Source: Promethearchaeota archaeon (lineage in GTDB: Archaea; Asgardarchaeota; Lokiarchaeia; Sigyniarchaeales; SOKP01). Taken from it: a DNA stretch of 26,156 bases. The stretch covers positions 1 through 26,156 of the forward strand of contig JBHLMQ010000044.1 in NCBI GenBank assembly GCA_048938005.1, read 5' to 3'. The translations under genes were made by a program, and so were the position numbers. Below the pieces are notes generated by a model. The model was given only the letters and a program-made list of their open reading frames with translations. It did no database searches and was not told where the DNA came from. Below, in pieces: positions 22,180 through 25,136 of the stretch; position 1 is the stretch's first letter, and the number at the start of each line of letters is the position of its first letter.

Positions 22180-23418
22180 GTGATGCAATATATGAAGATT
22201 GATTATACCTCTTTTAAGGATGTGAAATTGAAAGGAAAAAAAATTTTGATGCGAGTTGATATTAACTCCAATATTGATACCGAAAAAATGGAGATCAGAG
22301 ATTCTCCTCGAATTCGAGTCCTTGCTCCCGCATTGAATGAATATTTTAAAAAAAGTGCTGTAATTATCCTCGCACATCAATCTCGTCCCGGAAGTGAAGA
22401 TTTTACAGATTTAGATATACATGCGAGAGAATTAGAAAAATATCTCGGTCGACCGGTAAAATTTGTTAAAGATATTTTTGGAGAACAAGCAATTCATGCA
22501 ATTAAAGATCTCAAACCTGGAGAAGTGTTGGTCCTTAATAATGTTCGAAAATTTGAAGGAGAAATGAAAAATTATAAAGATTTCTCTGAGGCAGAAAATA
22601 CTGAAATGATAAAAACTCTTTTTCCATTAGTAGATTATGTTATTGTTGATGCATTCGGAGCTGCTCATCGTGCTCACGCTTCTATTGTAGGATGGCCAAA
22701 AATGATGGCAGGACCTATAACAGATAAAGAGTTAGATGTTTTAAAGAAAATAATGCAAGAACCAGAAAGACCAATGGCTATGTTAATTGGAGGTGCTAAA
22801 GCGATAGATAAATTTAAGGCAATGAAATATAATTTTGATAATGAAAAATTAGATTATGCTCTCTGTTCAGGATTAACCGCAATCTTAATCTTTGAAGCCC
22901 TAGGAAAAAACATGGGTGAACCAAACCATAAAATAATAGCTGAAGATTTGGAAGCCAATAAAGATATGATTGTAGATACATACGAGAAATACAAAGATAA
23001 GATTATGCTTCCAGAAGATTTAATTATTGATGATAACGGCAATAGAAAAACAATAGGAATTGATGAAGCTGGTACTTATAATACAACCACTGGCGATATT
23101 GGTCAAAAAACTGTCGATAAATTTAATGATATTCTTATGAAATGTAAAACAATTGTTGCTAATGGTCCACCAGGAATATTTGAAAAGGAGGTTTTTAGAA
23201 AAGCCACAAATGAAATTGTGGATACAATGGCAGCTGCAACAAAGAAAAATAAGGCACTTACGATAATAGGTGGAGGAGAAATGGGGGCAGCTGCTTCAAT
23301 GGCCGGAAAAGCGGATGATGTTTCCTTTATTTCAACCGCGGGTGGAGCAATGTTAGAAATTCTCTCTGGAAATGATTTACCAATGATTAGAGCTTTACGC
23401 GAAAAAAAGTATAAATAG
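22180..23418 (+). CDS. pgk: Phosphoglycerate kinase
   Basis: RVDIN, LAHQSRP, NVR, DAFGAAHRAHAS, GGAK, NGPPGIFE, IGGG, ISTAGGA.LE.L.G..LP. The start may be the ATG at 22183 or 22192. Confidence 0.97.
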   Translation: MMQYMKIDYTSFKDVKLKGKKILMRVDINSNIDTEKMEIRDSPRIRVLAPALNEYFKKSAVIILAHQSRPGSEDFTDLDIHARELEKYLGRPVKFVKDIFGEQAIHAIKDLKPGEVLVLNNVRKFEGEMKNYKDFSEAENTEMIKTLFPLVDYVIVDAFGAAHRAHASIVGWPKMMAGPITDKELDVLKKIMQEPERPMAMLIGGAKAIDKFKAMKYNFDNEKLDYALCSGLTAILIFEALGKNMGEPNHKIIAEDLEANKDMIVDTYEKYKDKIMLPEDLIIDDNGNRKTIGIDEAGTYNTTTGDIGQKTVDKFNDILMKCKTIVANGPPGIFEKEVFRKATNEIVDTMAAATKKNKALTIIGGGEMGAAASMAGKADDVSFISTAGGAMLEILSGNDLPMIRALREKKYK

Positions 23419-23425
23419 TTAATCT

Positions 23426-23443
23426 TTTTATTTTTTTATTTTT
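23426..23443 (+). terminator. T-rich terminator candidate after pgk
   Basis: Interrupted T tracts immediately after the stop codon. Confidence 0.45.
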
Positions 23444-23543
23444 ATTCGAAATTAGGAATTATGGCAGAATTTAACAATTTTAATAAAATATTTATTTTTT
23501 AATATTATAAATTACATATCATTTGGGATTTATAATGATTAAA

Positions 23544-23636
23544 GGGCCCGTGGTCTAGCTCGGTAAGTAACTAACCCGGAATGACGTCCGCTTGACGTGC
23601 GGAAGGTCGTGCGTTCAAATCGCGCCGGGCCCACCA
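23544..23636 (+). tRNA. tRNA-Val(GAC), 93-nt gene with a predicted 16-nt intron in the D-loop; CCA encoded
   Basis: Acceptor GGGCCCG/CGGGCCC plus ACCA. Anticodon arm TCCGC-TTGACGT-GCGGA (GAC at 23594-23596). T arm GTGCG-TTCAAAT-CGCGC. Removing 23566-23581 gives a canonical 77-nt tRNA. Confidence 0.95.
23566..23581 (+). other. Predicted non-canonical tRNA intron at position 21/22 (BHB type)
   Basis: 4-bp helix UCGG (23560-63)/CCGG (23576-79); 3-nt bulges UAA (23564-66) and AAU (23580-82). Cleavage after the second nt of each bulge excises AGUAACUAACCCGGAA. Confidence 0.75.
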
Positions 23637-23659
23637 TTAAATAATTAAATAATAGAAAG

Positions 23660-24139
23660 ATGCCAATTAGAATTCGCTGGTTATCAAAGGAGTATTTTGG
23701 TATTGGATTATTACTGTTATCAATATGTGGAATATTCCAATTGTTTTTTATATTTATAGGTCAATATTTCTTGGCGATGGGAAATCATATCATTGTGATT
23801 TTAATTCCAATTGGAATTTGGGTGGCAATTTTCTATGCTACACTTATTATTTTTGAAAGTTATGCCCAAGTTGAGAGGAGAGAAAAATTAAGGAGTCGGT
23901 TTGGCAGAACTACAATTAAGAGTTCAAGATTAAAAAAATTTTTAGATTTTCCAATAACAAAACCATTATTGATTATTTTTATCTTATTTAACGGCTTTTT
24001 CTTTAGTATATTTTTTATCTGTGTTTTGTTCTTAAACAATTCTTTATCTTTTTTATTAGCAGAAAATCTAAGTGCTCTTTTTTGTTTACTTATTGCAAAT
24101 CTAATAGAGAAAAATTACGGTCGAGTTAAGAGATATTAA
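23660..24139 (+). CDS. Hypothetical membrane protein (4 TM with basic central loop)
   Basis: 159 aa; two TM pairs separated by an R/K-rich loop; starts 23 nt after the tRNA CCA. Confidence 0.75.
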   Translation: MPIRIRWLSKEYFGIGLLLLSICGIFQLFFIFIGQYFLAMGNHIIVILIPIGIWVAIFYATLIIFESYAQVERREKLRSRFGRTTIKSSRLKKFLDFPITKPLLIIFILFNGFFFSIFFICVLFLNNSLSFLLAENLSALFCLLIANLIEKNYGRVKRY

Positions 24140-24287: not shown

Positions 24288-25136
24288 ATGGCAAGACTTG
24301 AAATAAGATGCCCAATTTGCTTACAATGGCAACATATAGAGATTTCAGATGATATGACTAAAAACGTTTCAAAAGGACTTTTAGCAATTAATATAGCAGC
24401 AGGAATGATATGCGAACATTCATTTATCGCATATGTAGACAAAAATTTAACTGTTAGGGACTGTATTGTAGCAGATTTTAAAATTGAACTTCCGGAGGGG
24501 GCCCCAACTCAGGAAACTGAAAAACTTATCACTCCTGAAACTGATACAATTAAATTTGATTTAATCAAGTTGAATATCCCCGAATTGTTAATGGCATATG
24601 TTCTCAAGTCAATATTTGTAGGAGAAAAAGTATTAATAATTTCTGAAGAGGAGTTCCTACATAACCACGTAATAAATTTCTTTAAGTATATTGCGCAAAA
24701 TTCATTTGAATTTGAGATGTCAATTATCACTGAAGAAGAATATAAAAAGAATAAAGATAACTACAAAGAATATATTATCTTTAAAAACAGGAAAATTATA
24801 AGAGACACTTATAAAATAATCAACCCCAAACAATTAGAAAACGAAAAATCTATGGTTCAAAAGTTTTTAGCTGAATATGATTTAATGGCAGGTTTAATCA
24901 TATTAAGAAATGAAGTAAATAAAACCTATGAATTTTCGAAAACTATTGCTGAATCTCTCGAAAAACAAAAAGGAAAACCTATGACTTCTAAAATTCTTAT
25001 TGATTATGTCTTTGAAAAATATGGTGAAAGGATCCAAATTCCTTATCTAACATTTCTAATCAACATTGTTCAGAACTATTTTAAAGTCGAAGTCCCTAAA
25101 ATAGGGGGAGTTACTGATCTTCTTGGTTTCCTATAA
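24288..25136 (+). CDS. Hypothetical protein with N-terminal CxxC...CxH zinc-binding module (Lokiarchaeia-type family)
   Basis: RCPIC...GMICEHSFIAYVDKNLTVRD N-domain, followed by an alpha/beta and a helical region. Confidence 0.75.
   Translation: MARLEIRCPICLQWQHIEISDDMTKNVSKGLLAINIAAGMICEHSFIAYVDKNLTVRDCIVADFKIELPEGAPTQETEKLITPETDTIKFDLIKLNIPELLMAYVLKSIFVGEKVLIISEEEFLHNHVINFFKYIAQNSFEFEMSIITEEEYKKNKDNYKEYIIFKNRKIIRDTYKIINPKQLENEKSMVQKFLAEYDLMAGLIILRNEVNKTYEFSKTIAESLEKQKGKPMTSKILIDYVFEKYGERIQIPYLTFLINIVQNYFKVEVPKIGGVTDLLGFL

Follow-up and report, generated by a model that had tools for sequence, protein, structure and literature searches.

The window, that is, the whole stretch of 26,156 nucleotides analysed here, carries on its forward strand a tRNA-Val(GAC) gene (23544-23636) in which 16 extra bases (23566-23581) stand at the end of the D-loop. 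Gene identity and coordinates, as put forward in the original prediction, match the sequence base for base. The 7-bp acceptor stem is formed by positions 23544-50 with 23626-32 and the D-stem by GUCU (23553-56) with UGAC (23582-85); the anticodon GAC (23594-96) lies in the loop UUGACGU on a 5-bp stem, and a variable loop of 5 nt precedes the T-arm (23609-25, loop UUCAAAU), the discriminator A being at 23633. The extra bases separate a 5' exon (23544-23565, tRNA positions 1-21), comprising the 5' strand of the acceptor stem, U8 and G9, the 5' strand of the D-stem and the D-loop AGCUCGGUA, from a 3' exon (23582-23633, tRNA positions 22-73), which runs from the 3' strand of the D-stem to the discriminator. 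A CCA triplet is encoded in the genome at 23634-36, where orthologues have CCA, CTA, TTA, CGA, TCC and others; it is probably there by chance. Since the triplet varies among orthologues, the length of 77 nt quoted below for the product may count a chance CCA.

Upstream of the tRNA gene, and on the same strand, lies the phosphoglycerate kinase gene pgk (22180-23418; Pfam PF00162, E 2.4e-98), and downstream an ORF of 159 aa (23660-24139, forward strand) to which no Pfam family could be assigned; the same holds for a 282-aa ORF located further downstream (24288-25136). Among 30 loci of related genomes tested by tblastn, some of which end at contig ends, pgk lies upstream of the tRNA in 21 and the 159-aa ORF downstream in 23, and because these flanks are common to them the loci are regarded as orthologous. 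A MAFFT alignment of 21 orthologous upstream regions brought to light a 38-base, A+T-rich block (23481-23518, forward strand), which is kept in nearly all 21 rows, whatever the intron state, while its distance to the gene varies. It may be read as an archaeal promoter (TATA/BRE-like), may mark where the pgk transcript ends, or may serve as both.

The unspliced stretch yields no tRNA with ARAGORN, and once 23566-23581 are removed in silico a 77-nt tRNA-Val(gac) is called. As drawn by ARAGORN, the product is complete in U33, GAC at 34-36, G18G19 and a 7-nt anticodon loop, and it obtains a cloverleaf score of 26 with a custom script; its D-stem pair 13:22 is U-U, likewise in intronless orthologues. 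The original prediction had claimed that excision of these 16 bases gives a 77-nt tRNA, at a precise junction. Both points are borne out, the former by the ARAGORN call and by the identity of the product to natural intronless orthologues, the latter by an exact match of the junction in intronless congeners, as found in a survey of the tRNA-Val genes of the genus. A BLAST search of the genome with one such orthologue (L010) returned the two exons at 100% identity, namely 23544-23565 (query 1-22) and 23581-23633 (query 22-74), the one-base overlap of the two matches being due to an A on either side of the junction. As the intronless orthologues define the same junction, the boundary 23566-23581 is fixed independently of any structural motif. 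A cut one base leftward would give an identical product; position 21/22 is therefore chosen over 20/21 by the geometry of the bulges.

EndA, the splicing endonuclease, cuts after the second base of each bulge of a bulge-helix-bulge motif. In the tRNA-Val(GAC) precursor, the central 4-bp helix is made of the exon strand UCGG (23560-23563, that is, U17, C17a, G18 and G19) and the intron strand CCGG (23576-23579), with four of four pairs formed; on its two sides are the three-base bulges UAA (23564-23566) and AAU (23580-23582), with predicted cuts after 23565 and 23581, respectively. The intron is closed by an inner hairpin (23567-23575), in which the pairs G23567:C23575 and U23568:A23574, a 2-3-bp inner helix, enclose a loop of 5 nt. 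One cut in each bulge is what is described for EndA in the main text of a recent preprint (Goswami et al. 2026, 10.64898/2026.10.13.758758). When intron lengths of 11-59 were scanned throughout the 93 bases, with a rule that demanded four pairs in the centre, a 3-nt bulge on either side and a helix of 2 bp or more in at least one flank, 14 of 2373 candidate boundaries conformed, 23566-23581 among them. The strict form of the motif, with helices flanking both sides, is not present, the outer helix being reduced to one possible C:G pair. The bulge-helix-bulge originally proposed stands as to its central helix, bulges, inner pairs and boundaries, yet not as to the outer pair C23559:G23583, a rival of the D-stem pair C12:G23 with an ensemble probability of 0.0. 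For this reason the motif, as modelled, is of the relaxed class rather than a strict helix-bulge-helix-bulge-helix.

Energy calculations illustrate the same competition. The conformer in which the central helix and the inner hairpin coexist with a D-stem of 3 bp amounts to -34.7 kcal/mol, and the one in which C23559:G23583 replaces C12:G23 to -27.3 kcal/mol; the pairs of the central helix have ensemble probabilities of 0.26-0.47. Next to the D-stem, a 4-by-3 internal loop probably harbours the 3' cut site. The minimum-free-energy fold of the precursor (-36.6 kcal/mol, z-score -1.13) adopts a shifted register in which the motif is absent; as a test of the motif it was dropped, for the energy model penalises 3-nt bulges.

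The distribution of the insert was assessed by extracting tRNA-Val(GAC) genes, through closure of acceptor and T-arm plus a valine anticodon loop, from every match in the genus. The gene was found in 29 of 41 genomes in the search for relatives, and in 46 of the 54 genomes of the genus, that of the window included, for a total of 47 genes. Twenty-four of these are intronless, and nine of them (L010-L013, L113, L114, L119, L121 and L127) are identical over all 74 bases to the predicted product, lacking the 16 bases at the exact junction. The 16-nt insert at 21/22 is the only one in six genes (the window's own and L004-L008), and in a seventh (L009) it occurs together with a 31-nt intron at 15/16, so that six other congeneric genomes share the site. 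Thirteen genes (L014-L016, L021, L032, L115-L118, L123-L125 and L129) have only an intron of 25-32 nt at 15/16, and the remaining three (L025-L027) a different D-loop intron of 29-30 nt.

The introns other than that at 21/22 have features of their own. The one at 15/16, in its 13 congeneric genes, is placed directly after TAG, takes its helix strand from the D-stem GTCT, forms three to four of four central pairs and has an inner helix of 3-9 bp. In genome G015, the gene with two introns (L009:1455-1578, forward strand) has both within the D-loop, separated by one exon base (C16); the exon strand of the 21/22 helix begins one base past the 3' cut of the 15/16 intron, hence the order of splicing may matter. 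The D-loop introns of L025-L027 (genomes G006, G009 and G003) reach three of four central pairs at best, whichever boundary is tried, and a tRNA-Val(GAC) of another genus (L028, genome G031) has a D-loop intron with four central pairs at about 20/21; in these four genes the introns measure 29-31 nt.

The seven carriers of the 21/22 insert were aligned without gaps over 78 columns, which begin with the outer C and extend to the 3' end. Exon columns are invariant as far as the discriminator; the only places that vary are the initial base of the intron, the second of the inner pairs, the loop and a single position in the intron strand of the helix. In all seven, the insert is 16 nt long, UCGG pairs with the bases at 23576-79, the 3' bulge AAU is unchanged, and the motif keeps its 4-bp helix, its two 3-nt bulges and its inner helix; overall, 119 of 119 pair cells of the proposed structure are standard. 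The second inner pair is G:C in four carriers and U:A in three, a compensatory change, and the first pair of the central helix is U:A in four and U:G in three. When the 3' partners are slid by 1-3 columns, pairing falls to 23.5-54.6%. The observed score of pairing plus covariation was attained by 11 of 500 shuffles of these seven related sequences, whereas the count of covarying pairs, which is one, was attained by 445 of 500, seven related sequences affording low statistical power. A set length, set bulges, a retained helix and a free loop are the pattern that a splicing constraint would predict.

The host appears to be equipped for the task. Two genes, on different contigs, encode proteins of 198 and 205 aa that match both PF01974 and PF02778 and have the N-terminal as well as the C-terminal EndA domain. 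The 198-aa protein matches the alpha subunit of Aeropyrum pernix EndA (3p1z_B) with an E value of 1.8e-35, ungapped through the Crenarchaea-specific loop, with its K56 opposite K44; in the same alignment it keeps the Tyr, His and Lys positions, which we take to be the residues of the EndA catalytic triad. The 205-aa paralogue is nearest to Methanocaldococcus jannaschii EndA (E 8e-25), and in it a Ser replaces the catalytic His. K44 is described as the loop lysine that gives the A. pernix enzyme its broad substrate range (as cited from Hirata 2019), and an (alpha-beta)2 EndA with the L1 loop is the type reported for Asgard archaea (as cited from Kaneta 2018). Judged by its sequences, the host pair fits the (alpha-beta)2 type with a Crenarchaea-specific (L1) loop. 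The ligase candidate RtcB is likewise encoded in the genome (E 1.4e-170).

The same enzyme bears on the origin of the DNA. Promethearchaeati is the formal name of the Asgard group. Relatives of the catalytic subunit, at 76-94% identity, are almost all labelled Promethearchaeota or Promethearchaeia, a few having other Asgard candidate-phylum names, and NCBI places Promethearchaeia under the kingdom Promethearchaeati; the Asgard origin proposed at the outset agrees with these records.

Taken together, it is very probable that the window contains a single-copy, functional tRNA-Val(GAC) gene of a member of the Promethearchaeia (Loki-type Asgard), interrupted at 21/22 by a 16-nt intron that is removed by proteins; its splicing, an inference, is almost certain. 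Transcription would start from the A+T-rich, promoter-like block upstream. In the precursor, U17-C17a-G18-G19 would pair with the intron CCGG, thereby hiding the G18G19 that is needed for the contact between D-loop and T-loop, and the 2-bp hairpin would close the intron, leaving a 4-bp helix with one 3-nt bulge in either strand. The flank on the exon side would probably be the D-stem instead of an adjacent helix, hence a motif of the relaxed type. RtcB would then join the exons, the D-loop would become AGCUCGGUA, and the tRNA could fold.

A quite different outcome, in which the 16 bases stay and the D-loop of the mature tRNA is enlarged and bears an additional small hairpin, is very unlikely. 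G18G19 and A21 must be free in a working tRNA; the insert pairs with the former and adjoins the latter. Its length of exactly 16, together with the bulges and the 4-bp helix, is retained in seven of seven carriers while the loop drifts, congeners have intronless alleles with identical exons, and splicing enzymes are encoded in the genome. The lack of a spliced RNA and one contig with the insert are points in favour of retention, although the RNA data as a whole neither show nor contradict splicing. Six RNA runs contain each 0.03-0.07 of the sampled words of the stretch, and the reads of four of them show no spliced joint, although identical intronless congeners would look like spliced reads in such data; they assemble into contigs over 23544-23648, 23586-23634 and 23729-23787. 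The first of these, a 151-nt contig of an oligo-dT library, still contains the insert in a variant form, yet it also bears the 5' flank of a relative, and consequently derives from a precursor or from DNA rather than from a mature tRNA. According to the main text of the preprint, some D-arm insertions may be non-introns (Goswami et al. 2026).

A copy that is decaying or silent, valine GUY codons being read by another tRNA, seems even less plausible. The genome is a draft (3.72 Mb in 101 contigs, 29.8% G+C, 95% completeness, 7% contamination) and the tRNA census described below, with 27 solved genes, is incomplete, which leaves some room for such a tRNA. Nevertheless, an intact tRNA-Val(GAC) elsewhere, which the original prediction had named, together with a lack of expression of this gene, as evidence against its claim, was not found in this 95%-complete, 7%-contaminated assembly by BLAST with the intronless L010, the only matches being the two exon pieces on contig C79; the other valine tRNAs of the custom census are Val(TAC), with no intron, and Val(CAC), with one. 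Moreover, the two exons match intronless orthologues with 100% identity, synteny and upstream block are conserved, and among the 118 valine codons of eight ORFs in the window GTT is the most frequent (50, which with 13 GTC makes 63). As to an artefact of assembly or binning, which the contamination of a metagenome-assembled genome might invite, the chance is minimal: the same insert site recurs in seven separate genomes, nine DNA runs, whose sources include sediment and mangrove metagenomes, contain at least half of the words sampled from the 601 bases at 23300-23900, and the contig from the RNA library spans a variant of the insert. With the spliced intron as the preferred reading, a Loki-type Asgard archaeon would depend on D-loop splicing for the sole tRNA found for the commonest valine codon of the window. 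In addition, intronless, single-intron and double-intron alleles with identical exons provide natural controls for assays in which splicing by an Asgard EndA is tested; by the account of Goswami et al. 2026, assays of this sort are still lacking for any Asgard cell.

Introns in unusual positions of Asgard tRNAs have precedents. In three genomes of Atabeyarchaeia and Freyarchaeia, 92-95% of tRNA genes are reported to be intron-bearing, and the positions are frequently non-canonical (Valentin-Alvarado et al. 2024, PMC11291895). The preprint's main text states that tRNAscan-SE overlooks 30% of the intervening sequences in its focal Asgard families, that half of those overlooked lie in the D-arm, at bulge-helix-bulge boundaries far above chance, and that such sequences have been gained repeatedly, none having so far been demonstrated to undergo splicing in an Asgard cell (Goswami et al. 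2026). With the D-arm sequences of these two papers, as far as described in their main texts, the tRNA-Val(GAC) intron shares an Asgard host, location, invisibility to standard annotation, a bulge-helix-bulge boundary, a two-subunit EndA and a presence that varies among close relatives. It differs in size (16 nt as opposed to a median of 22-23 nt) and in lineage, those papers being centred on Atabeyarchaeia and Jordiarchaeia (a class in which the preprint places Freyrarchaeaceae and Jordiarchaeaceae; Freyarchaeia is the name used in the 2024 paper); neither 'Loki' nor 'Prometh' occurs in the main text of the preprint. No paper on D-loop introns in Promethearchaeia specifically was found in the literature, the supplementary tables of the 2024 paper and of the 2026 preprint aside.

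Outside the Asgard group, non-canonical introns at 20/21, 22/23 and elsewhere have long been known in Crenarchaeota (Thermoproteales) and Nanoarchaeota (Yoshihisa 2014, PMC4090602). They too are spliced by proteins, affect the region of D-loop and D-stem, rely on a transplantable bulge-helix-bulge motif and need an (alpha-beta)2 EndA that has the Crenarchaea-specific loop; however, they belong to another phylum, and to thermophiles, whereas here the genomes were assembled from metagenomes of mesophilic sediments, and 21/22 is not among the positions named in the relevant passages of that paper. The canonical archaeal intron at 37/38 has the same architecture, i.e. a 4-bp helix and two 3-nt bulges, with the 5' strand in the exon and the 3' strand in the intron, but takes its exon strand from the anticodon loop instead of the D-loop, and in the present case the outer helix is not contiguous. 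Along the same line, the ectopic introns of eukaryotes (Cyanidioschyzon merolae and nucleomorphs) are short, sit in D and T arms and are excised by a protein endonuclease, which in their case is the Sen complex (Yoshihisa 2014, same passages).

In the light of these precedents, the proposal that an Asgard EndA handles D-arm sites is no novelty, since it is already published in Kaneta 2018, Valentin-Alvarado 2024 and the 2026 preprint; its bearing on the origin of TSEN is, as a consequence, not new either. The tRNA-Val(GAC) intron is a real, fresh instance of a published phenomenon, and what is gained is that instance and a test system, with no new principle.

The gene also exemplifies a hazard for annotation. 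ARAGORN finds no tRNA gene in the whole window, Rfam at gathering score no match in it, and the 27 matches of RF00005 across the whole genome include none on contig C79. A permissive Rfam search of 23480-23700 was discarded: it gave a partial tmRNA-like match to the end formed by T-arm and acceptor and two chance matches, with no tRNA row. With introns allowed, ARAGORN reports 30 tRNA genes in the whole genome; in 21 it forces an 'intron' on the anticodon loop, which yields wrong anticodons, such as Tyr(ata) and Asn(att). At C24:133219-133320 the custom script reads Pro(TGG) where ARAGORN reads Tyr(ata), and at C60:96894-97054 Leu(CAG) where ARAGORN reads Asn(att). Because ARAGORN and the Rfam tRNA model are blind to genes of this kind, genomes of this group will seem to be devoid of essential tRNAs, or will carry false anticodon calls.

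In the census of the other tRNA genes, acceptor and T-arm had to close, bulge-helix-bulge candidates were taken out, and the product had to reach a strict cloverleaf score of at least 24. This score took the place of acceptance by ARAGORN, which had led to wrong solutions, e.g. a 19-nt removal for tRNA-Val(GAC). The census solved 27 tRNA genes, 19 with at least one predicted intron; 9 of 37 candidates were unsolved, the full tRNA set was not recovered, and two of the 27 solutions look spurious (C70:64677-64856 and the second intron of C97:155112-155244). Five genes of the genome have predicted introns that occupy the D-loop end and pair with G18G19, namely tRNA-Val(GAC), whose intron is the shortest, Leu(TAG) (C41:35484-35601), Glu(TTC) (C41:35244-35348), Leu(CAG) (C60:96895-97054) and Glu(CTC) (C90:6364-6475). 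Non-canonical introns are predicted elsewhere in the genome at about 14/15, 24/25, 25/26, 28-32, 43/44 and the D-loop end, further instances being those at C24:133219-133320, C31:71331-71432 and C41:42399-42500, and two introns are predicted in each of Leu(CAG) and Leu(GAG). ARAGORN also calls a tRNA-SeC(tca) on the reverse strand (C97:101872-101964), which suggests that the archaeon uses selenocysteine.

The syntenic tRNA-Val(GAC) locus shows at least five allelic states, i.e. none, 15/16, 21/22, both, and another D-loop intron. In a maximum-likelihood tree of the flanks (810 bases, comprising the last 333 nt of pgk and the downstream ORF, from 23 loci) the seven carriers of the 21/22 intron are scattered, and well-supported sister pairs differ in state: none as against both in one pair (100/99), 15/16 as against 21/22 in another (100/99). 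The 21/22 state requires six changes over the 23 loci, and shuffled labels require 6.2 on average and three at the minimum. A constraint uniting the seven carriers, a group chosen after the tree had been viewed, is worse by 270 log-likelihood units and is rejected (p-AU 8.9e-8). The intron sequence itself was set aside as a phylogenetic marker, for 16 nt with some eight free positions cannot separate a single origin from several. The flank tree points to repeated gain, to repeated precise loss, or to very short tracts of recombination. It is conceivable, and is advanced here with some reserve, that the tRNA-Val(GAC) D-loop is in this genus of Promethearchaeia a hotspot where introns are still being gained or precisely lost; if so, the locus would be a natural system to catch how archaeal tRNA introns arrive and leave. 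A minor case concerns genome G016, in which two tRNA-Val(GAC) loci share the same flanking genes, one being intronless (L010) and the other having the 15/16 intron (L032); the pair may reflect a mix of strains in the bin, not a duplication.
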